Part shown: piece by piece, positions 798 to 46,680 of the stretch
Layout: the number at the start of each line of letters is the position of its first letter
Numbering within the stretch: the stretch's first letter is position 1
Source of the DNA: Escherichia phage vB_EcoM-Ro157c2YLVW
Reading direction: 5' to 3' (one strand)
Sequence record: NC_050153.1
Length of the DNA stretch: 64,000 bases
Notes under the pieces: generated by a model
What the model saw: only the letters and a program-made list of their open reading frames with translations
The model's database searches: none
Told to the model about the DNA's origin: nothing
Position numbers and translations under genes: made by a program

Positions 798-1118
798 TCA
801 ATACAAGAGTTGGTTGACTGTTTCATCACTAAAACCCTCTTCATCGTCATCATCATCCTCATCGCCACCATCTACTGCTGGCCAATCAACAAACCAGCCA
901 GCGTAAAGATGCAGCGTTCGGAGAACATCACTTGCGGGAGCATCAAGGGTGTTAACGAATCCCATATAGCTATTGGGATTTGCCCCAGCTATGGCTTCAG
1001 CGATCATGTCCTCGGTAATGTCACCGGAGATAATGCTTAAACGCCCGGAAACTTCTTCATTATCATCAAATTCGATAATGGCATCTCCACCTAATGGCGC
1101 TGCGATTTTAATCTGCAT
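798..1118 (-). CDS. small acidic protein (Asp/Glu-rich C-terminus), last gene of the darA-type operon
   Basis: 106-aa ORF; start overlaps the stop of the upstream 995-aa gene by 11 nt (operon coupling); run DGGDEDDDDDEEG. Confidence 0.6.
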   Translation of the reverse strand: MQIKIAAPLGGDAIIEFDDNEEVSGRLSIISGDITEDMIAEAIAGANPNSYMGFVNTLDAPASDVLRTLHLYAGWFVDWPAVDGGDEDDDDDEEGFSDETVNQLLY

Positions 1119-4095
1119 TATTTAGCTCCTTTGCCACACCTAATAACAGTTCCAGCAATCCGTCACCATTCATCAGTGATGCGGCAGCGGCCTCTTTGTC
1201 ATGATACAACTGAAGAGCCATAGAGAATACTTCCGTTGCTGACGTTTTGGAAATAGTCGGTGATTTCTGCCGAATTTTCCCGGTGTTACTTACTGAGGCT
1301 GGCGGGTATACCTTCGCCATATAAATATTACTCAATCGAGATCTGAAGCACCATTCAGGCTTGCCACGCCCACCGATATTGACGAAAGATGGCTTATCCC
1401 CTTCAACATTGGCCTTCAGGAATGACCGGGCTTTCTCTAACAAACCTGGGTTACTGTACTCAAGATGATGACCCAGCTCGTGCCACAGTGCACTTGCATT
1501 TTCATCGTTCAAATTGACAGCAACAACACCATTAAGATTTGCATATGCCCTTCCCTGGTGGTGAACCACCTTTGATAAGGTCGAAATTTTACCGCCGGTC
1601 AGGCGATAAATATCAGCAAGTTCCTTGCGCAGGTCTATCCCACCATTCTGTCCAGCGCGGGCTTCTTCCACTTCTTCCGTGATAAAAGAGTCGGCCCACT
1701 CAAGAGCTTTTTCTTCAGATACGGATGAGTTGGCGATCGCACTGTTCATGGCGGATAACACTTTCTCGTGGACCGAACCCATACTTCGCTGATTCATTTG
1801 CCAGCGTGTCTGCGGGTTATATGAGAATCGCTTAAGTAGTTGGTCAAGATGCTCAAGTTCTTCTTCGCTGACATACTTTTTAGCCTCACCAATAATGCCG
1901 GGGAGAATATTGCCGTTAGGATTAAACGCTCGCGAAAGGAAGTGTTTCAGCGCCCCCATGCCCTCCGATGCTTCAATATCACCAATAACCCGGTTAACAA
2001 TGGCCGCACTCTTCGGATTAGCATCCGCCAACGCTCTGACTACAATTTGCAGGGACGATACGACCTCACGCTGCATATCCGTCCTGATCTCATCAATAAA
2101 CTCTGGCGTTATGCCGTGCTCTTTAAGGATATCCCTGCCTTCCGCCGTTACCCCATCGATATCACCGACATGTTTATTAACCCGACTTTGCAATGCCTTA
2201 AATGCCTTCAGAATTCCACGGGCATCATCCGCTTTACTAACGGCCTTCCTGAATGCTGGCAAGAAGTCTGAGTTAACCTCATTTTGTTGATCGGCCCACT
2301 GAATGGAGGCTTCTTTCATCTCGTCCAGAGTCAGATCACCCAACGCGGTATGGTCTGTGAATATGAGCGATAACCTCTGAACCATTTCTGCCAATGGTGA
2401 TGCCGAATGCGCCGCGCTAAGGAATGCTTTCACCCTGGTTGGGCGAATGGAAAACCAGTCAATAGCTGGTGGCATATCTCCGTTTTTTATCGCCTGCGCT
2501 ATCTCGTCAAAGCCATCGCGCCCAAGGGAGGATGCGTGATTTAACAAGCCGCGAAGTAACGAATTGCTGATACCGAATAATCGGCACCATTTTTTCACGT
2601 CGGCAACAGGCATTCGAACAAAATGCGCAAGCACTTGAACAAGCTGTTCATCCTGGGGATCTGTACGGGAAAGCAGCCTGATCAGATGAATAATGTCTTT
2701 GATGCCGGATGCCCGATGTAATAGCAAACTGGTATACGGAGCAACACCGTTGTAACTACCGCCGGAAACGGACTCGAAAAGACCGCCGGATATCCCTTGC
2801 ATGCCTTCGTTTTCCAGTTCCTGAGACACCTGGCGAAGGATATCCTGTAACGACACATCGCCGCCGCCAAACATATCCCCCAGCGCCTGGCCCTGGTGCT
2901 GTAACTCATCATTGATACGTTGCGCCATCAACTTAAAGGCGGTGGCCATACGCTTCGCGCTACGGTTATTCGCGACGATGAACAACGCGAGTGCTTTCAC
3001 TTCCGGGGCCGTTTCGCTGAACATATCCCCCTGAGCAATAACATCGGTAATATGCTGGCCTGACTCCTTCGATTGCCTTACCAGGTCTACCGCATCTTTC
3101 AATGCCGCCAGCGCCTTTTTATCGAGGCTATCCGCTGTCTCAATGCCATCAACAATAGTTGTCACAGCCTGCTTGTGCGCTTCTCCTGATAAAGCCTGCA
3201 TCTGGACAAAATCATTGGCTGCCGCATTAAGCGCCGTCAGAACATTACGCATATCCGGATCAGGTTCTTCTGCAACCATCCTTACCAGGCGCGCATCCTT
3301 ATATGCCTTGGCAAAGATCGCGTTTTGTATACGGTCTACAAGTTGCCGTGTTGGTCGCCCATCTTCAGTTACAAGGCCAGCCGCCTGTGTGGCACCAACT
3401 TGCGTCATAAATCCGCGAATAAACGCGTCATTACTGCGGCTAAGCAGATCTCCGCTTTCTGACGGGTTAAAAAGCGCCATCATCGCCGGTGTTATGCTGT
3501 CGGCATCAACAAAAGCCTTTTCACTGGCTGCCATTTCCTGAAGATCAGAAATATTTGAGTCCTTGGCAAACTGAACGCGGTCAACCTTAGTTAACCGGCG
3601 GCGCACCAGTACCGGAGCCGTCATTGATTCAACCTTTTCAGGTCGTATGCCGAATTCGGTCGCATGATCAATCAGGTACTCACGATACCGATCCGCATTG
3701 CCGTCCTGATAGGCTTTGATGATCCCCATGGTCCGTCCATTACCTGACTCAACGGCATTGTCCTCACCAATTATCGGCGCACCATGGCTGGATAAACCGG
3801 AATCAGTAAGCTGAGCAGGCCGCAAATCTTTGGATATCTGGTTAACCTGAAGAAGGCTGGATGCGCGGGTCCGGTCGCGCGGCTGAAGTTCCTGGGGATA
3901 GTCAGGATTAATTTTCCCATCCAGAGTATTGGATACCAAAAGAGCTGAGGCATCGACGATATCAAACGCTGTTTTTACCTCGTCTCCCTTCGCTGTCACC
4001 ACATACGAAACCCGCCCATAATCGGGCAGGTTCTTTAGCAGCTCGATCAGCGTTTCTATGCTGGTGGCCATTACCACCTGATCGCTTAAGCTCAT
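1108..4095 (-). CDS. large virion/antirestriction-operon protein (DdrB-like) with C-terminal HExxH zincin-like motif
   Basis: 995-aa ORF; motif WHELGHHLEY near C-terminus; position downstream of DarA/DdrA-like genes matches the P1 darA operon order as recalled. Confidence 0.6.
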   Translation of the reverse strand: MSLSDQVVMATSIETLIELLKNLPDYGRVSYVVTAKGDEVKTAFDIVDASALLVSNTLDGKINPDYPQELQPRDRTRASSLLQVNQISKDLRPAQLTDSGLSSHGAPIIGEDNAVESGNGRTMGIIKAYQDGNADRYREYLIDHATEFGIRPEKVESMTAPVLVRRRLTKVDRVQFAKDSNISDLQEMAASEKAFVDADSITPAMMALFNPSESGDLLSRSNDAFIRGFMTQVGATQAAGLVTEDGRPTRQLVDRIQNAIFAKAYKDARLVRMVAEEPDPDMRNVLTALNAAANDFVQMQALSGEAHKQAVTTIVDGIETADSLDKKALAALKDAVDLVRQSKESGQHITDVIAQGDMFSETAPEVKALALFIVANNRSAKRMATAFKLMAQRINDELQHQGQALGDMFGGGDVSLQDILRQVSQELENEGMQGISGGLFESVSGGSYNGVAPYTSLLLHRASGIKDIIHLIRLLSRTDPQDEQLVQVLAHFVRMPVADVKKWCRLFGISNSLLRGLLNHASSLGRDGFDEIAQAIKNGDMPPAIDWFSIRPTRVKAFLSAAHSASPLAEMVQRLSLIFTDHTALGDLTLDEMKEASIQWADQQNEVNSDFLPAFRKAVSKADDARGILKAFKALQSRVNKHVGDIDGVTAEGRDILKEHGITPEFIDEIRTDMQREVVSSLQIVVRALADANPKSAAIVNRVIGDIEASEGMGALKHFLSRAFNPNGNILPGIIGEAKKYVSEEELEHLDQLLKRFSYNPQTRWQMNQRSMGSVHEKVLSAMNSAIANSSVSEEKALEWADSFITEEVEEARAGQNGGIDLRKELADIYRLTGGKISTLSKVVHHQGRAYANLNGVVAVNLNDENASALWHELGHHLEYSNPGLLEKARSFLKANVEGDKPSFVNIGGRGKPEWCFRSRLSNIYMAKVYPPASVSNTGKIRQKSPTISKTSATEVFSMALQLYHDKEAAAASLMNGDGLLELLLGVAKELNNAD

Positions 4096-9120: not shown

Positions 9121-9697
9121 ATTGCGGGGCGACTGGCCACTCAACATCCGCTGCTACTGCTGTATCAACACGATTCAACAATACCCGATATGTCTTCCAT
9201 GCAGTCAGTAACGATGCCTCTTCCTCCGTCGCAATATCCAAATCTACGGCATCCTGAAGTGGCGCAATATGCTCACTGGCCATCTGCATCAGGCTGTTTT
9301 TTGTTTCTTCCGCCTTCCGGATCCGGAACAGTTTTTCTGCTTCTGCATCTTTCACCCAGGCTGTGCCGTTCCACTTCTGAAACTCCCCTTCCGGGGATAA
9401 CCAGGTGACATTTTCCGGTAATGGGCCAAGTTCAGAAATAAATAACGCGTCGCCGGAAGCCACGTCATAGACGGTTTTTCCCCGATGGTCTTCAACGAGA
9501 TTCCACGATGCCTCATCACTGTTGAAAACGGCCACGAAGCCAGCCGGAATATCTGGCGGGGCAATATCGGTACTGTTTGCAGGCAGACCTGTATGAGGTG
9601 GAATGTATGCATCACCTTCACCAATAAACTCATTGGTTCCGGTCAGTAGATTATAAATTTTTATGGTCCGTGATTGTTCACTCATTCTGAATGTCAT
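9119..9697 (-). CDS. tail fibre assembly protein (Tfa, U-like)
   Basis: 192-aa ORF directly downstream of the tail fibre gene (stop/start overlap); typical Tfa architecture with conserved N-terminus and variable C-terminus. Confidence 0.75.
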
Positions 9698-22598: not shown

Positions 22599-22695
22599 GT
22601 ATTTTTAAGTCGCGAATGCTATCTTTTCGCATCATATTGACCTTTTAATCGTTCAGGCTTATAGTTCCGCCGTCGTAGCAAATTCTGCGACCGGG

Positions 22696-22717
22696 TTTAG
22701 CAGCCTGAATGATTGTG
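22696..22717 (+). promoter_or_regulatory. upstream c4 target repeat (a1/b1-like)
   Basis: TTTAGCAG...GATTGTG is complementary to CACAATC and CTGCTAA in the predicted c4 RNA. Confidence 0.5.
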
Positions 22718-22785
22718 CGGACAGCCGCAGATATCCGATATTGCGGTATTTTTGTGTCCGTAAAACCGCGTTACGCCCAAATTAT

Positions 22786-22858
22786 GGTGGGGCGTGATGG
22801 GGAGGCTTCGGCCTGCTGGTTTCACAATCGCCAGTCTGCTAACCCCGTCACGTCCTGC
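22786..22858 (+). ncRNA. c4: c4-like antisense repressor RNA (immI)
   Basis: Structured segment with stem TGATGGGG/CCCCGTCA enclosing single-stranded CACAATC and CTGCTAA, complementary to repeats at 22696-22717 and 22864-22900. Confidence 0.5.
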
Positions 22859-22863
22859 CACCT

Positions 22864-22905
22864 GTTTAGCAGCGGGTAGCAGGTTGTTAAACCTGATTGT
22901 GAGGC
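22864..22905 (+). promoter_or_regulatory. downstream c4 target repeat (a2/b2-like) covering the icd RBS
   Basis: TTTAGCAGCGGG...CCTGATTGTGAGG; the GAGG at 22901-22904 is the RBS for the ATG at 22913. Confidence 0.5.
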
Positions 22906-26303: not shown

Positions 26304-26374
26304 TACAATCGTTGCGGGTGCTTGAGGCTATCTGCTTCAGGCATTACCCGAAAAGCAGATAGAAGAAAGCCCCA

Positions 26375-26435
26375 GATAACATTACGCGTCCTGCAAGACG
26401 CTTAACATTAATCTGAGGCCACATCTATGCTTAGC
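26375..26435 (-). ncRNA. Sok-like antisense RNA candidate
   Basis: Minus-strand promoter TTGACC (26466-26471) -18 nt- TAATCT (26442-26447) directs transcription antisense across the mok start/RBS; 3' end not defined. Confidence 0.35.
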
Positions 26436-26633
26436 ATACGTAGATTAGCCTCTTACCGACCAAAAGGTCAAGGAGAAGCAGGCTATGAAGCAGCAAAAAG
26501 CGATGTTAATCGCTCTGATCGTCATCTGTTTAACCGTCATTGTGACGGCACTGGTAACGAGGAAAGACCTCTGCGAGGTACGAATCCGAACCGGCCAGAC
26601 GGAGGTCACTGTCTTCACAGCCTACGAATCTGA
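26427..26633 (+). CDS. mok: Mok-like overlapping reading frame
   Basis: 68-aa frame starting upstream of and overlapping hok in a different frame, the canonical hok/mok arrangement. Confidence 0.45.
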   Translation: MLSIRRLASYRPKGQGEAGYEAAKSDVNRSDRHLFNRHCDGTGNEERPLRGTNPNRPDGGHCLHSLRI

Positions 26634-40469: not shown

Positions 40470-43400
40470 AAGAGCTGTGCTATGGATCTGTTTGCAGTGG
40501 AATTGAAGCCGCGAGTATTGCCTGGGAACCGTTGGGTATGCGTCCGGCGTGGTTTGCTGAAATCGAGCCTTTTCCATCGGCCGTTCTTGCGCTCCGCTGG
40601 CCCCATGTTGCCAACCTTGGCGACATGAAAAAACTTGCCAAAAAAGTCTTGGCTGGGGAAATCGAATCCCCTGACGTGCTCGTCGGGGGAACACCATGTT
40701 TTACCGCGGGGCATATGGTTCTTTGTAAAAATGGCTATAAACCAATAGAAAATGTTTGCCCTGGTGATTACGTAGTCAGTCATCTCGGGCGGTTACAACA
40801 AGTAAAAAGAGTTGGTTCAAAAATAGCTAATACGGGGTTACTTAATGCCGTTGGGCAGCCTTTAGGTATAAGAACAACCAATGACCATCCCTTCCTGGCT
40901 GTTCGGTGGAAAGCCCAAAACACCCGGAAAAATGGCACATATTTTAAGAGAGAGTTGTTGTCTGAACCGGAATGGCGAGCAGCATGTGATATGCCGGGAT
41001 ATCAATGGTGCGCTCTAACTAATTTCAATATTGCATTTCCAGATATTTGTTCTCGGTTCTTGTCTGAAGAACAGGCTATGTATCTTGCGGGCGCTTATGT
41101 TGGCGATGGATATATTAGGAGATGGAGAGGTAAATCTAAGAAGGCGGTTGTTTTTGGCATAAATTGCCAGAAATTGAGAAAGTTTCATTGCCGCATACCA
41201 GAAAACATATTTTCCGTGGCAAGCGAAATCCGAGGGAGCATCAAAGTAACCTTGAATGATACGTGTTATGCCAATTGGCTTAATGAACATTTTGGCGAGT
41301 TAAGCCATGCTAAGCGTATCCCTGCATGGGTGATGTCGCATCCATTGCGTCATGTGTTTTTACAAGGCTATCTTGATACTGATGGGACACCAAGTGGTAA
41401 AGCGGGATTTAGAATTAATAGTGTTAGTTCTGCGCTTGCTTGGGGCGTTGCGGGGTTGTCACAGACTTGTGGTTATGTTTCTTCGGTCAGCTTTATTGAA
41501 GTTGAGCCCAAAAAAGTGATCGAGGATCGCGTGGTAAATCAACGGAATTATTATCAGGTAACAATCTGCCCGCAGAAATTGTCACGTAAATCAAGATTGG
41601 CTCATGGAATGCTTTTACGAACAGTCAAAGAGTTTAAATCGGTAGGCCTAGATACTGTATACAACATAGAAGTCGAAGGTGATCATTCCTATATCCTCAA
41701 TGGTGCGGTGGTCCATAACTGTCAGGCATTCAGTATCGCGGGATTACGTGGTGGGCTTGATGATGAGCGTGGCGCGCTAACTTTAAAGTATGTGGAGCTT
41801 GCAAATGCAATTGACGACAAACGGGCTGAGTCATTTCTCAAACCAGCCGTTATCGTCTGGGAAAATGTCCCAGGAGTCTTGTCATCGGCAGATAACGCCT
41901 TCGGATGTTTCCTTGCCGGATTGGCTGGAGAAGATGTGCCATTTGAACCAGGTGATCGACCTGAATCAGGAAAAAGCAACGCGTTCTGGCGGTGGGATGG
42001 CAAAACCGGTTGCCATGTTCCAAAGTGGCCGCAGTGTGGTTGTATTTATGGACCGCAGCGAAAAGTGGCCTGGAGAATCCTTGATGCCCAATACTTCGGA
42101 GTGGCACAACGACGCCGACGCGTGTTTGTTGTCGCAAGTGCTCGAACAGATCTCGATCCCGCAACGGTACTTTTTGAGTTCGAAGGCGTGCGCCGGAATA
42201 TTGCGCCGAGCCGAAAAAAGAAGGAAATCGCTTCCGCCATTATTGCAAATGGCGCTGCAATCAGTGGCGAAAGCCTAAATCCATGCCTACACGCTGACAT
42301 GCCACCCGGTATGAAATCGACGAAAGCCGTAAACGCTTTCAGGATGGCAGCATTTGGGGAATATATTGACGATGAAACCGCATCGACAGTAAAGGCAAGA
42401 GATTTTAAAGATGCCACTGACCTTGCCGTTTTTAGCAGCACAGGAGCAGGTTTTTGGTCAGAAGGGCATGGTACATTGCGGGCACGTGAGCAAGAAAGCC
42501 ATGAGCATCTTGTTACATTGGCTTTTCCTGAGCGTATGAGCGGTACACAACATGCTGCAACTAAGAATACTTCACCATCTCTAATGGCTAAAAATCCAAC
42601 AGCTGTTTGCTATGAAGTAAGAAACGCAGAAGTAGCTGTCCGCCGTCTTACCCCTGTCGAATGTGAAAGGCTGCAAGGTTTTCCTGAGGGGCATACGTTG
42701 ATCCCGACGGAAAAGCGTAAAAAAGTTTCTTCAGATGAACTGGCATACCTTCGCAATCACTATCCAGATTTAAGCGAAGAAGAGGCCGCGATGCTTGCAG
42801 CTGACGGACCGCGTTACAAAGCGATCGGCAATAGTATGGCAATACCAGTAATGCGCTGGATTGGCGATCGGATTACTAAGGCCGTATGTCGGCAGAAAGA
42901 AGGAAGTGAAACAAAAGAGCGAAAAGTTAAACCAGCGGCAGAATTCGAACGGTCCATATTCAAATGGGCTGGTGGAAAATTTGGTGTTCTGGAACAAATC
43001 TTTCGCTATTTGCCAGAAGGGAAGCGCCTGATTGAACCTTTCGTTGGTGGCGGAGCTGTCTTCATGAATGCCGGATACCAGGAAAATCTGCTAAATGATG
43101 TGAATGCTGACCTGATTAACTTTTACAAGACTCTGCAACGCGAGGCGCATTCACTTATCACTCTGGCACATCGTTTCTTCCAGGACTACAACACACAGGA
43201 AGGATACCTGGCAGTACGGAATGCGTTTAACAAACAAGTCTATGATGATTTACATCGCGCAGCGGCGTTTTTGTTCCTGAACCGACATTGTTTTAACGGA
43301 TTGACGCGTTACAACCAGGCCGGTGAGTTCAATGTCGGTTATGGGAAGTATAAAACTCCGTATTTCCCATTACAGGAGATGGAAGCCTTCCTCGGTGCGG

Positions 43401-43753
43401 AAGGGCGGTCTGAGTTTGTATGCGGTGATTTTGCAGCGGTGATTGAAGCTGCCGGAGAAGGAGATGTCATCTTTTGCGATCCGCCGTATGAACCGCTTCC
43501 AAATACAGAGGGATTCACGAACTATTCCGGTCATGACTTTAAGTTTGAAGAGCAAAAACGCCTGGTGTCTCTGTTGACGGATGCTCATCGTCGAGGTGCA
43601 AAGGTTCTCATTACTAACAGTGGCGCGCCAAACATCAGAGAGCTTTATCATGACAGTGGCTTCAGAGTGGAACCTCTTTTTGCCAGACGTTCTGTGTCTT
43701 GTAAGGGGGACACTCGAGGTGTAGCTCATGACGTTTTGGGTATATTGCTCTAA
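40466..43753 (+). CDS. dmt: bifunctional DNA methyltransferase: N-terminal C5-cytosine MTase (intein-interrupted) fused to C-terminal Dam-like N6-adenine MTase
   Basis: C5 motifs: motif IV GGTP|CQAFS (split by intein), ENV (VIVWENVPG), [13 protein letters not shown]; Dam domain from ~42945 with KWAGGK and DPPY motifs. Confidence 0.85.
40697..41719 (+). mobile_element. intein (341 aa) with LAGLIDADG homing-endonuclease domain, inserted at the catalytic Cys of the C5-MTase
   Basis: Begins with Cys (CFTAGHMV...), block [17 protein letters not shown] motifs [11 protein letters not shown] and [11 protein letters not shown], terminal ...NGAVVHN followed by Cys+1; excision restores GGTPCQAFS. Confidence 0.85.
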
Positions 43754-43760
43754 TAAATTT
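43744..43760 (+). promoter_or_regulatory. repressor operator (perfect ATTGCTCTAATAAATTT) overlapping the dmt stop codon
   Basis: Perfect 17-mer; downstream TGTAAT -10-like hexamer; heads the tRNA-plp-ban operon. Confidence 0.6.
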
Positions 43761-44425
43761 ATTAGTGTAATATCACCTCAATGAATCGTGATTTATAGAG
43801 CGATTTAGCTGTTAGCCGCGACAGGCGCGGCGGTAAGCATGGCTGGGCCTAGTCCTCCCAGACAAACCACCGAGTTGCCAGGTTGACCATGCGCCTAAGT
43901 GGCAACGCCGAAGTGCGTTACGAGCGTCCAGTTTGCCCATCTTCGGGTGGGCGTTTTTTTCAGGGTTTTCGTCATGGTTAGCGACTTTGCGGCGGTTTAG
44001 AAACTGACCATTAAAGTAAATGCAAACGATGATCTGATGATGGTAGCGGCCTAAGAAGCCAGATGCCATGGGGTATGAGTCGTCCCCCGTCAAAAAATCG
44101 ACCGCAGAGTGTCCCCGTCTGTGTATTAGGGAACGGGGAGGCACAACAGGTAAGGGCGCTGGTGTGATTAACCAGATGAACGAGAAGGGGCCATCTGTTG
44201 GTCAGCGTCCTTTCCTGTTGCGTTTTCTTTTCAGCGTAACAGCGGTGCTTAACAGCACTTTGGGTACAGTTCCACGAATTTACGGGTATATCCCGTCATG
44301 CTGAAGGCGCTAATCACGCTGGAAGCCAGGGTTATGCATCCCCTGTTACCGAATTGCAGCCAGGGCGCGGTGCGCCGAAAAGCATACGGAGGTGGAAGCC
44401 CTCGCCGGAGACGTACCCGGCAAGT

Positions 44426-44500
44426 GATGGTGTAGCTCAGCGGTAGAGCAGTTGGCTGTTAACCAACTGGTCGGTAGTTCGAATCCACCCACCATCGCCA
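44426..44500 (+). tRNA. tRNA-Asn (anticodon GTT)
   Basis: Cloverleaf: acceptor GATGGTG/CACCATC, D-arm GCTCAGCGGTAGAGC, anticodon loop CTGTTAA, T-loop TTCGAAT, encoded CCA. Confidence 0.75.
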
Positions 44501-44505
44501 CTTTA

Positions 44506-44592
44506 GGGGAGTTAGTCCGTAGGGGTAGCGGGGTAGACTGTAAATCTACTGTCATTGCGACTCGGGTGGTTCGACTCCATCACTCCCCACCA
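44506..44592 (+). tRNA. class II tRNA-like gene with GTA anticodon (tRNA-Tyr-like), atypical D-arm
   Basis: Acceptor GGGGAGT/ACTCCCC, anticodon stem-loop GTAGA-CTGTAAA-TCTAC, long variable arm hairpin, T-loop TTCGACT, encoded CCA; D-stem only 3 bp with 4-nt spacer. Confidence 0.55.
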
Positions 44593-44596
44593 CATT

Positions 44597-44672
44597 GCCG
44601 ATTTAGCTCAGTTGGTAGAGCAGTCGCTTTGTAAGCGAATGGTCAGCGGTTCGATCCCGTTAATCGGCACCA
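44597..44672 (+). tRNA. tRNA-Thr (anticodon TGT)
   Basis: Acceptor GCCGATT/AATCGGC, D-arm GCTCAGTTGGTAGAGC, anticodon loop TTTGTAA, T-loop TTCGATC, encoded CCA. Confidence 0.75.
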
Positions 44673-45532
44673 ACATAACAGGTAAGAGCATTCTCCCTTA
44701 TGGGGCCTGGCTTAAATGCATCGAGTGCTCTTACCGTTGTGATGAAGTGCAGATCTTAGAAGCAACCAGAAGATAAGCATCTGGCTTCACAACATAAACC
44801 GCAGGAACGACCAATAAACGGTAGTCCGTATGGAGAACACCCCGTTGAGGAAGAGGCCTGGCCGGAACCGTAACCGGCGACTGGTAATGTGTGTAAATGG
44901 AGCGAAATATGTGGGCGTTTAACGGGATACGGGTTGTAACAGCGATTATTAACGGCGAACTTAAGTATTCACGTTTCGAGACAAATGAACGTGATGGGAA
45001 ATGTATTGGTGTGCGGTTAGTAAGAGAATACGCATAACAACTACAACGTTGAGAACACTGGCGTAACGGGGTCATATCCCAATCTACGAATAAATGTTGC
45101 GTTGCCGCGTGACAACCAGTGTTCTCAACATTGTGGTGAATGCACAGGCTGATGTGCCGCAACTACAGTAGTGCGCGCTTTGCGGGGCTTGCTACAACCC
45201 TGTGTCGGAGTTCAGCACCGACCATCACAGTTTGATTCTCTGGCATGAGCATAACGCTGAAATAAGTCCAGTCTGGTGCGGTCTGATCACCCGCCGTTAG
45301 CTCCACGAAACGGAGCACGTAACAGGTAAGAGCATTCTCCTGTAACAATCTACAGGTCCACCAAGAATGCTCTTTCCGTTGCGGTGAATGCGGCTAAGCG
45401 CACGCGGGGAAATGGTTATATCTGTCCATTATTTCTCCTTGTTTCCACGTCCACGGTGGATAACCAGCCAAAGGACACCGGGAGGAACCCGGCACCGCAG
45501 CTTTTTTATTCGTTAAATAATGGAGTGAGAGG

Positions 45533-45769
45533 ATGCAGAACAATCCGAACAAATGTCGAACGCTATGGGTGCGGTTATATATTTATGCCGTCCTCTGTTT
45601 GATTGTGTCACTGGTTCTGTATGTTTGGCTTTTGCCAAATATGATCTCATCTAACAGCACAATACTTGTATTGTTGGGAGTCCTTCTCGCGCTCATTTAC
45701 CCGGCTTTCGCAGTAGTCTTTTTTCGTGAAAAAACCAGGAAATTAATTAATGAAAAAAACGTTGATTAG
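45533..45769 (+). CDS. small membrane protein (two TM helices)
   Basis: 78-aa ORF upstream of and overlapping the SPFH lipoprotein gene. Confidence 0.5.
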   Translation: MQNNPNKCRTLWVRLYIYAVLCLIVSLVLYVWLLPNMISSNSTILVLLGVLLALIYPAFAVVFFREKTRKLINEKNVD

Positions 45770-46577
45770 TGCAGCGATTATTTTGGGTTCTTTATGTCTG
45801 ACCGGATGCGATCGGGTAGAGCCAGGTAACGTAGGGATCAAAGTAAATAAGCTGGGGGATGATAAAGGTATCGGTGAAGTAGTTGGCGTTGGTCGCTACT
45901 GGACAGGCTTGAATACTGAAGTTTATATCTTCCCGACCTTTAAGCAAATGAAGACATACGATGAGCCGTTCAGCTTCCAGATGAGCGACGGAACAACCAT
46001 TGGTTACCACATCGGCGTAGCCTACAAGGTTGATCCAGCAAAAGTCACAACGGTATTTCAGACCTATCGCAAAGGTGTAGATGATATTACTGATACCGAT
46101 CTACGCCAGAAGGTTGCAGATGCTCTGAACCGATTAGCCAGCAAAATGACCACCGACAAATTTATCGACGGTGGCAAATCTGAATTGCTTGATGCAGCCC
46201 TTAAAGACATTCAGGAAGAAATGACGCCAATCGGCATTCAGGTGATGAGCCTCTCTTATGTAGGTAAGCCAGAATACCCGCCAACAGTTATTGACAGTAT
46301 TAACGCCAAAGTCACGGCAAACCAAAAAACCCTGCAACGCGAGCAAGAGGTCAAACAACGTGAAGCAGAGGCCAACATGCTGCGCGCGGAAGCTGCCGGA
46401 CAGGCTGATGCTATTCGCACAAAAGCCCAGGCCGAAGCTGATGCCATTCGTTTACGTGGTGAAGCTCTGCGCCAGAACCCCGGTGTTATGGACTTGGAAG
46501 CGATCAACAAATGGAACGGTACATTACCGCAGTATATGACCAGTAATACCGCTGTTCCGTTTGTTCCGGTGAAATAA
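45750..46577 (+). CDS. SPFH/band-7 (prohibitin-like) domain lipoprotein
   Basis: Lipobox LCLTGC after signal peptide MKKTLISAAIILGS; SPFH-like core followed by Ala/Gln/Glu-rich coiled coil. Confidence 0.65.
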   Translation: MKKTLISAAIILGSLCLTGCDRVEPGNVGIKVNKLGDDKGIGEVVGVGRYWTGLNTEVYIFPTFKQMKTYDEPFSFQMSDGTTIGYHIGVAYKVDPAKVTTVFQTYRKGVDDITDTDLRQKVADALNRLASKMTTDKFIDGGKSELLDAALKDIQEEMTPIGIQVMSLSYVGKPEYPPTVIDSINAKVTANQKTLQREQEVKQREAEANMLRAEAAGQADAIRTKAQAEADAIRLRGEALRQNPGVMDLEAINKWNGTLPQYMTSNTAVPFVPVK

Positions 46578-46604: not shown

Positions 46605-46680
46605 GGCCCTTTAGCTCAGTGGTTAGAGCTGGCGACTCATAATCGCACGGTCACCGGTTCAAGTCCGGTAGGGGCCACCA
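46605..46680 (+). tRNA. tRNA with CAT anticodon, Ile2 (lysidine)-type by resemblance to E. coli ileX; elongator Met not excluded
   Basis: Acceptor GGCCCTT/AGGGGCC, D-arm GCTCAGTGGTTAGAGC, anticodon arm GGCGACTCATAATCGC, T-loop TTCAAGT, encoded CCA. Confidence 0.7.

Follow-up and report, generated by a model that had tools for sequence, protein, structure and literature searches.

Two groups of coliphage tRNA-Tyr genes have been described in connection with defense against phages. The tRNA-Tyr gene of the virulent T-even phage T6 (AP018814, EcT6_00128) lies in a tRNA-rich region, with the homing endonuclease SegB as its neighbor and as the driver of its amplification. A northern blot detected the T6 tRNA-Tyr, and T6 is rescued from the Septu system EcB88 when the tRNA is overexpressed or its gene is amplified through SegB (PMC13096335). 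Upon overexpression, the degradation of host tRNA-Tyr was partly suppressed and the T6 copy was itself cleaved at C48, the reported Septu cleavage site within its variable arm; wild-type T6 could not escape Septu unless the gene was amplified (PMC13096335). The tRNA-Tyr of T5 and SP15 rescues from retron-Eco7, and this rescue was abolished by mutations in the anticodon or the stems and depended, for the T5-like gene, on a strong promoter (PMC11555353). Direct cleavage of tRNA-Tyr by the PtuAB proteins of retron-Ec78 was not reproduced in vitro (PMC12819146). In T5 strong phage promoters drive the gene, one of a block of some 25 tRNAs, and the genome record notes that the tRNA is an effective amber suppressor after replacement of its anticodon, which means that it is charged and used by ribosomes. 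The reference phage P1 (NC_005856) possesses trnA (Asn) and trnT (Thr), 2 nt apart and with no Tyr gene between them. In the papers on phage-plasmids that we consulted, the tRNA-Tyr described below is not mentioned.

We analyzed a stretch of 64,000 nucleotides from Escherichia phage vB_EcoM-Ro157c2YLVW (NC_050153.1), here called the window, whose tRNA region is 94 to 98% identical to P1-like phages and phage-plasmids (Punavirus). A first-pass annotation made from the letters alone had marked an 87-nt tRNA-like element with a GTA anticodon, 5 nt after tRNA-Asn and 4 nt before tRNA-Thr, and had proposed tRNA finders as a check. ARAGORN scored a cloverleaf at exactly these coordinates, 44506 to 44592 on the plus strand, and called it tRNA-Tyr with the anticodon gta at position 35. 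The spacers to the neighboring genes are CTTTA and CATT, as had been described. The features of the locus are the following:

43744 to 43773, plus strand: C1 repressor operator (ATTGCTCTAATAAATTT...) overlapping P1ban, recognized by 99% identity to annotated P1 features
43934 to 43953, plus strand: hairpin resembling a terminator, with a T run, where the dicF-like region (a misc_feature in P1) ends, between Pban and the tRNA array
44426 to 44500, plus strand: tRNA-Asn(GUU), the upstream neighbor, found by ARAGORN and Rfam; the allele differs from P1 trnA
44506 to 44592, plus strand: class II tRNA-Tyr(GUA) gene of 87 nt with encoded CCA, found by ARAGORN and Rfam RF00005 and through PGAP-annotated identical copies
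44597 to 44672, plus strand: tRNA-Thr(UGU), the downstream neighbor, found by ARAGORN and Rfam; the allele differs from P1 trnT
46605 to 46680, plus strand: tRNA with a CAT anticodon in the same operon, called Met by ARAGORN; P1 has a 100% identical gene under the annotation trnI, tRNA-Ile2

The full sequence of the tRNA-Tyr gene is GGGGAGUUAGUCCGUAGGGGUAGCGGGGUAGACUGUAAAUCUACUGUCAUUGCGACUCGGGUGGUUCGACUCCAUCACUCCCCACCA. It matched the Rfam model RF00005 from end to end (full model, 1 to 71) at 41.9 bits, above the gathering score of 29, corresponding to an E value of 1e-6 when 4 kb was searched and of 1.7e-5 for the whole window. The three other tRNAs of the operon reached 65 to 70 bits with the same model; two nucleotides inserted after position 9, ahead of the D stem, and the long variable arm account for the lower score of tRNA-Tyr. 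Hundreds of records contain annotated tRNA-Tyr genes with 93 to 100% identity to the 87 nt, which puts the feature far beyond chance. The minimum free energy (MFE) fold of the single sequence is a cloverleaf with a 7-bp acceptor stem, 4 unpaired nucleotides, a D hairpin, an anticodon arm, a 3-bp variable hairpin, and a 5-bp T arm. Its folding energy was not better than that of shuffled sequences (z = -0.67) and is therefore uninformative as evidence when taken alone. The acceptor stem, anticodon stem-loop, variable-arm hairpin, T loop, and encoded CCA named in the first-pass annotation were all recovered in the sequence and in this fold. The parts of the molecule, all on the plus strand, are as follows:

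44506 to 44512, plus strand: 5' strand of the acceptor stem, GGGGAGU, pairing with 44582 to 44588 (ACUCCCC) in the MFE fold; the first pair is G1-C72
44513 to 44516, plus strand: connector U8 A9 G U, 4 nt between acceptor and D stem, seen as a 2-nt insertion in the Rfam alignment
44517 to 44531, plus strand: D arm with the stem CCGU/GCGG (4 pairs, the last U.G) and the 7-nt loop AGGGGUA, supported by covariation among relatives
44533 to 44549, plus strand: anticodon arm GUAGA-CUGUAAA-UCUAC, with the anticodon GUA at 44540 to 44542
44550 to 44564, plus strand: long variable arm UGUCAUUGCGACUCG, 15 nt, with a 3-bp stem GUC/GAC and a 5-nt loop
44565 to 44581, plus strand: T arm GGUGG-UUCGACU-CCAUC, supported by the Rfam model, the MFE fold, and covariation
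44589 to 44592, plus strand: discriminator A73 and the encoded CCA end, read from the sequence

The D loop contains the GG by which it docks on the T loop. The anticodon loop CUGUAAA has 7 nt with U33 and a purine at position 37 and is identical to that of E. coli tyrU. In bacteria the tyrosine identity elements are A73, U35/G34, G1-C72, and a long variable arm (PMC9976931), and all of them are present in the window tRNA-Tyr. Compared to E. coli tyrU/tyrT, which has 85 nt, the phage gene shares the anticodon loop, G1-C72, A73, CCA, and a long variable arm starting with GUCA, but its variable loop is 2 nt longer. The main difference concerns the D arm. In tyrU, 2 nt connect the acceptor stem to a D stem of 3 to 4 bp, which stands in the normal register and closes a loop of 11 nt; in the window tRNA the connector has 4 nt, the D stem is displaced by 2 nt, and the loop has 7 nt, the total length from acceptor to anticodon stem being equal. 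Taken together, the sequence features indicate that 44506 to 44592 is very probably a functional tRNA-Tyr gene. As such it is not a new kind of gene; it is an ordinary representative of a known lineage of phage tRNA-Tyr and is routinely annotated.

The 87-nt sequence matched 1528 phage records. Identity to the window tRNA-Tyr was 93 to 94% for rV5-like Vequintavirinae, 90 to 92% for T-even phages (T6, RB14), 85 to 86% for Klebsiella T4-like phages, 80 to 83% for T5-like phages, 78% for Felix O1-like phages, and 77 to 79% for some Enterococcus phages. These matches place the gene in a phage-specific lineage common to rV5-like, T-even, T5-like, and Felix O1-like phages. The closest relatives outside P1-like elements are trnY of rV5 and its counterparts in other Vequintavirinae; rV5 trnY has been annotated as tRNA-Tyr since the original record, has a similarly low Cove score of 43.9, and is flanked by Arg and Ser genes, whereas the window gene is flanked by Asn and Thr. 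The T6 gene is 89.7% identical over 87 nt and has the same 4-nt connector, the same CCGU/GCGG D stem, an encoded CCA, and a variable arm and a T arm identical to those of the window. With this identity and this variable arm, the window gene groups by homology with the anti-defense phage tRNAs. The T5-like genes (NC_005859 T5t22; chee24; VSe12; SP15) are 80 to 83% identical and have the same D-arm architecture, but their acceptor and anticodon stems differ and their D loop has 8 nt. The variable arm of the window tRNA is identical not only to that of T6 but also to those of T5 and rV5, whereas the published probe sequence indicates that the variable arm of SP15 tRNA-Tyr is unlike it (PMC11555353).

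Two connector nucleotides (8 and 9) are normal in canonical tRNAs (PMC7609411), whereas the window tRNA-Tyr has four. As the functional T5 and T6 homologues show the same deviation, a 4-nt connector does not exclude membership among the tRNAs. The first-pass annotation had called the D arm atypical on account of a 4-nt spacer and a 3-bp stem; the spacer is real, but the stem consists of four pairs (C-G, C-G, G-C, and U.G). The D-arm signature of the lineage, U8 A9 N N - C(C/U)GU - GG loop - GC(G/A)G, is found in the window as UAGU-CCGU-AGGGGUA-GCGG. Every relative fetched had the same D-arm design, with U8 and A9 invariant, the next two nucleotides variable (GU, UC, UU, GA), and then CCGU...GCGG; T5 and VSe12 have the compensatory stem CUGU/GCAG, and the relative in CR8 has a 5-nt connector.

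Covariation was used to evaluate the cloverleaf that contains the shifted D stem, in an alignment of 13 sequences, 8 of them from named phages picked by BLAST similarity alone and 5 picked because of their D-arm architecture. In this alignment 97.4% of the cells were paired, and 17 of the 24 cloverleaf pairs changed on both sides, a result reached by none of 500 shuffles (0/500). Changes on both sides were seen for 7/7 pairs of the acceptor stem, 3/5 pairs of the anticodon stem, and 3/3 pairs of the variable-arm stem. The D stem was paired in 100% of the cells, with pair 13-26 occurring as CG in ten sequences, GC in two, and UA in one, whereas registers slid against the proposed one gave only 44 to 51% paired cells. 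A D stem in the canonical register was rejected: it paired in 50% of the cells across the relatives, and its pair 12-25 never formed. These data argue that the structure of the tRNA-Tyr is under selection and mark the unusual D arm not as a defect but as a conserved signature of the lineage that is compatible with function. Of 113 distinct phage tRNA-Tyr genes sampled from IMG/VR, 7 combined a 4-nt connector with a D stem of 4 to 5 bp, and the D stems among these seven differed (CGGU/GCCG, CCGC/GCGG, CCGCU/GGCGG, and GUCU/AGAC).

In reference P1, the same ban-operon locus has flanks 99% identical to those of the window, including Pban with the C1 operator and the dicF-like region, the same order of Asn and Thr genes, and an identical CAT tRNA. 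Pairwise alignment with P1 showed that the Tyr gene and its spacers are present in the window only. The phages vB_EcoM-813R1 and D6 are like P1 in lacking the Tyr gene, with Asn and Thr 2 to 5 nt apart. The proposal of an extra tRNA-Tyr was therefore borne out. The accompanying suspicion that annotations may miss the gene was not borne out for P1, 813R1, and D6, which truly lack it, nor for RefSeq, where PGAP labels essentially all P1-like copies; it did hold for some GenBank phage homologues, which are unannotated or carry the labels tRNA-Pseudo or tRNA-OTHER.

The 247-nt Asn-Tyr-Thr block was found in 307 PLSDB plasmids, with at least 80% coverage in 237 of them, and in 331 E. coli RefSeq records, with at least 80% coverage in 264 of them, where PGAP labels the genes tRNA-Asn, tRNA-Tyr, and tRNA-Thr. 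Taken by itself, the Tyr gene occurred in 269 of 5426 E. coli genomes (272 RefSeq records), always on a plasmid and never on a chromosome; these copies were 95 to 100% identical to the window gene and nearly all were annotated as tRNA-Tyr. About 80% of the P1-like plasmids in complete E. coli genomes carry the Asn-Tyr-Thr block, and P1 represents the minority state. Most natural P1-like phage-plasmids thus have a fourth tRNA, of a lineage shown in T5-like phages and T6 to counter defenses that deplete tRNA-Tyr, which textbook P1 does not have. In four other alleles from P1-like plasmids, all differences from the window gene fell in the D loop, the variable loop, or position 26. Since the P1-like copies are so alike (95 to 100% identity), this restriction of changes to loops is weak evidence of selection. 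One plasmid allele carried two stem-breaking changes (G3 to A and G14 to U); it was unannotated by PGAP and fell below the Rfam threshold.

The genomic neighbors of the tRNA-Tyr gene differ between phage groups, so that it moves as a unit. The Asn and Thr alleles of the window are 88% and 86% identical to those of P1, with compensatory changes in the stems. In three P1-like contigs from IMG/VR, the Tyr gene was 100% identical, whereas the Asn gene (80 to 99%) and the Thr gene (92 to 99%) were variable. The P1-like phage D6 carries a tRNA-Ser(UGA) very like that of rV5. The rV5-like tRNA-Ser in D6 and the constant Tyr gene beside variable Asn and Thr genes show the P1 array to be a mosaic which swaps tRNA genes with lytic coliphages.

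By homology to P1, with 99% identity, the C1 operator and the promoters P1ban and P2ban were placed at about 43728 to 43773, about 660 nt upstream. A promoter consensus scan of 43400 to 45000 yielded no sigma-70-like site and missed the annotated P1ban as well; it was evidently too strict to decide anything. A hairpin after tRNA-Thr was considered as a fifth tRNA and dismissed, as ARAGORN, also with relaxed thresholds, called no tRNA there in the window or in P1. We suppose that the tRNA array would be transcribed as one precursor once C1 repression of Pban is lifted. RNase P would then cut each 5' end, and the 4- to 5-nt spacers would be trimmed to the encoded CCA. Such processing by RNase P and 3' trimming to CCA is general for polycistronic bacterial and T4 tRNA precursors. 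Host TyrRS would charge the mature tRNA via G1-C72, A73, U35/G34, and the long variable arm, and the charged tRNA would read UAC and UAU, so that during lytic growth the host pool would gain tRNA-Tyr under phage control. The explanation as a whole, namely a functional tRNA-Tyr of the phage lineage in the ban-operon array that supplements the host pool and whose unusual D arm is no defect, is one that we regard as probable. Counting against it are the low covariance score, the pseudo and OTHER labels on homologues, and the hairpin between Pban and the array.

To see which benefit such a tRNA might bring, codon counts of the window were compared with those of a 50-kb sample of E. coli K-12. The codons read by the neighboring tRNAs were enriched 2- to 4.6-fold: ACA (tRNA-Thr) occurred at 15.0 per 1000 in the window versus 5.4 in the sample, AUA (the CAT tRNA, Ile2) at 10.2 versus 2.2, and AAU (tRNA-Asn) at 25.9 versus 13.1. 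For the array as a whole, codon compensation is therefore a plausible explanation. Tyrosine codons taken together reached 28.5 versus 25.5 per 1000, an enrichment of only 1.1-fold, with UAU at 18.1 versus 14.1 and UAC at 10.4 versus 11.4, and codon usage is accordingly a weak explanation for the Tyr gene. Moreover, as a single anticodon reads both tyrosine codons, codon bias cannot be the driver.

The flat usage of tyrosine codons, together with the published role of the closest homologues, makes buffering against tRNA-Tyr depletion the more likely benefit. By analogy with T6 and T5-like phages, we tentatively suggest that the gene may be selected because it buffers against depletion of tRNA-Tyr by PtuAB-type defenses (Septu, retron-Eco7), a proposal for which the chances are a little short of even. 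In T6 the gene sits beside a homing endonuclease that amplifies it, whereas the window copy belongs to a temperate phage-plasmid, is apparently under the C1-controlled Pban, and has no homing endonuclease nearby. Given the need for amplification in T6 and for a strong promoter in the T5-like case, a single copy may protect only weakly. As the variable arm is identical to that of the T6 tRNA, which is itself cleaved by Septu, any protection would come from dose and not from resistance to cleavage. P1-like elements would be a convenient temperate system for testing this counter-defense idea. A benefit from ordinary translational supply by a functional tRNA-Tyr, be it for codon or amino acid demand or as replacement of host tRNA when host transcription shuts down, and with no part in counter-defense, appears rather unlikely to us. 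It would fit the clear enrichment of the codons that the Asn, Thr, and CAT tRNAs of the operon read, and also a tRNA-Tyr gene that has no obvious strong promoter of its own, but the tyrosine demand of the window (2.85% of codons) is near that of the host sample (2.55%) and an anti-defense effect has been demonstrated for the close homologues of T6 and T5-like phages.

That the gene is a non-functional hitchhiker or a decaying pseudogene, acquired by recombination with the tRNA array of a lytic phage, is very improbable, even though the mosaic array with its constant Tyr gene beside differing Asn and Thr alleles in the three IMG/VR contigs, the success of reference P1, 813R1, and D6 without the gene, the low Rfam score, and at least one plasmid copy with broken stems are what one would expect of such an element. 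The window copy has all stems intact and all identity elements, the gene is retained by about 80% of P1-like plasmids with changes confined to unpaired positions, and the same architecture is functional in T5 and T6. Still less credible is the other option of the first-pass annotation, a tRNA-like decoy or processing element acting outside translation, either as a competitive substrate of a tRNA-Tyr nuclease or as a punctuation signal for RNase P. The partial sparing of host tRNA-Tyr by overexpressed T6 tRNA-Tyr, itself cut at C48, does fit a competing substrate, and a non-canonical connector might in principle impair use by the ribosome. However, the rescue by the SP15 tRNA required the tyrosine anticodon and intact stems (PMC11555353), and the T5 homologue, with the same D arm and variable arm, is the one noted as an effective amber suppressor. 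As a processing signal the element would be superfluous, since P1 has its Asn and Thr genes next to each other and manages without an additional signal. The full set of tyrosine identity elements and the encoded CCA likewise speak against this option, and we return to a functional tRNA-Tyr that supplements the host pool.

The D-arm architecture extends beyond coliphages. Carriers among Firmicutes were Enterococcus phages, a contig from a Ruminococcus metagenome-assembled genome (MAG), and a Tissierella contig; a 4-kb stretch of the latter gave no megablast match among phage records. A search of 185,579 species-representative genomes with the D-arm-plus-anticodon signature, a narrow exact pattern, gave two matches, both on Firmicutes contigs with the same architecture, and in none of these genomes was the signature seen as the chromosomal tRNA-Tyr of a bacterium. 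A review of non-canonical tRNAs describes connectors of reduced length for tRNA-Pyl and an additional loop for allo-tRNAs, and a 4-nt connector like that of the lineage is not described there (PMC7609411). One could imagine that the shifted D stem with its 4-nt connector (5 nt in CR8) is a selected, phage-specific tRNA-Tyr architecture, spread from coliphages to phages or prophages of Firmicutes, which leaves the tRNA chargeable by TyrRS but could alter how modification enzymes, phage factors, or tRNA-targeting nucleases of the host recognize it; we consider this unlikely. The non-canonical D arm lowers the scores given by tRNA finders, so that some relatives are missed or labeled as pseudogenes. 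Thus the CR8 copy with its 5-nt connector was missed by ARAGORN at default settings and lay below the Rfam threshold, and homologues in some phage records are labeled tRNA-Pseudo or tRNA-OTHER or left unannotated. This drop in score is worth knowing when phage tRNAs are counted.

The P1-like tRNA array is a mosaic, as judged from sequence comparison of the window (44426-44672) with P1 (L001) and three P1-like loci (L046, L077, and L085). Across three P1-like contigs from IMG/VR the tRNA-Tyr was identical, and the identity to the window ranged from 80 to 99% for tRNA-Asn and from 92 to 99% for tRNA-Thr. The Asn and Thr alleles of the window and those of P1 are separated by compensatory stem changes. 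The T stem of the window tRNA-Asn (44426-44500), GGUAG/CCACC, contains an A.C mismatch, a non-standard pair that was flagged by Rfam too, whereas four other P1-like plasmids have GGUGG/CCACC.

Homologues of the tRNA-Tyr were also detected. The homologue of Cronobacter phage CR8 (L128 601-688) is 92% identical and has a connector of 5 nt between the acceptor stem and the D stem. It was missed by ARAGORN with default settings, was called Cys in relaxed mode, and scored below the Rfam tRNA gathering score, yet it is annotated as tRNA-Tyr in its record. The UANN-CCGU...GCGG D-arm of the window tRNA-Tyr was also found in homologues from Firmicutes phages or contigs:

L127 601-682, Enterococcus phage phiM1EF22, tRNA-Tyr homologue with this D-arm
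L140 7235-7319, Ruminococcus MAG contig, tRNA-Tyr homologue with this D-arm
L141 about 1075-1160, minus strand, Tissierella sp. contig, tRNA-Tyr homologue with this D-arm

The Enterococcus phage copy, which lacks the CCA, has the T loop UGCGACU, and carries no annotation, was picked up only by relaxed ARAGORN. In phage PEf771, the match sits beneath a feature annotated as "group I intron endonuclease". The Tissierella copy has stem mismatches. The P1-like tRNA-Tyr copy in the Escherichia coli ETEC plasmid NZ_LR882992 (L136 248-334) carries the exchanges G3 to A in the acceptor stem and G14 to U in the D stem. As this copy was not annotated by PGAP and scored below the Rfam threshold, it is probably a pseudogene. 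The tRNA-Ser(UGA) of the P1-like phage D6 (L132 1542-1628) closely matches the tRNA-Ser of rV5 (L123 1702-1792) and is the second class II tRNA of rV5 type noted in P1-like genomes.

The tRNA array is surrounded by the following features of the window:

43868-43970, plus strand, dicF-like region, conserved and annotated in P1
44674-44741, plus strand, long imperfect hairpin directly 3′ of tRNA-Thr (MFE -32.6 kcal/mol, z = -5.25)
45380-45499, plus strand, match to the Rfam model of the gammaproteobacterial sRNA STnc100 at 38 bits, below its gathering score of 47
45750-46577, SPFH/Band_7 protein (Pfam E = 1e-30)
46605-46680, plus strand, CAT-anticodon tRNA, labeled Met by ARAGORN

The dicF-like region lies between Pban and the array. 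At its end are a terminator-like hairpin at 43934-43953 and then T7; P1 has one T fewer. The P1 counterpart of the hairpin behind tRNA-Thr (L001 1081-1175; z = -5.4) exceeds it in length by ~20 nt and has a T-arm-like GGGUUCGAAUCCC within it, and this stretch may be the leftover of a further tRNA; ARAGORN made no call for the hairpin in the window or in P1, even with relaxed thresholds. Between tRNA-Thr and the CAT tRNA, P1 carries plp-upl-tciA-tciB-tciC, whereas the window (44731-46577) holds another gene set, in which small ORFs lie ahead of the SPFH/Band_7 gene; RCS47, 813R1, and MH422554 share this arrangement. The small ORFs gave no confident family match. The STnc100 match spans model positions 31 to 147 of 206. 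The 100% identical P1 counterpart of the CAT tRNA is annotated as trnI, tRNA-Ile2, and several other phage records name this tRNA Met. A tRNA-Ile2 requires lysidine modification.

Besides the tRNAs, four ranges with above-threshold matches were noted in an Rfam scan of the whole window:

9156-9354, minus strand, IS009
22659-22711, plus strand, c4-a1b1 targets
22780-22865, plus strand, C4 antisense RNA
26316-26490, plus strand, sok antitoxin RNA

The c4-a1b1 targets and the C4 antisense RNA represent the P1 immunity region, and the sok match represents a hok/sok-type module.
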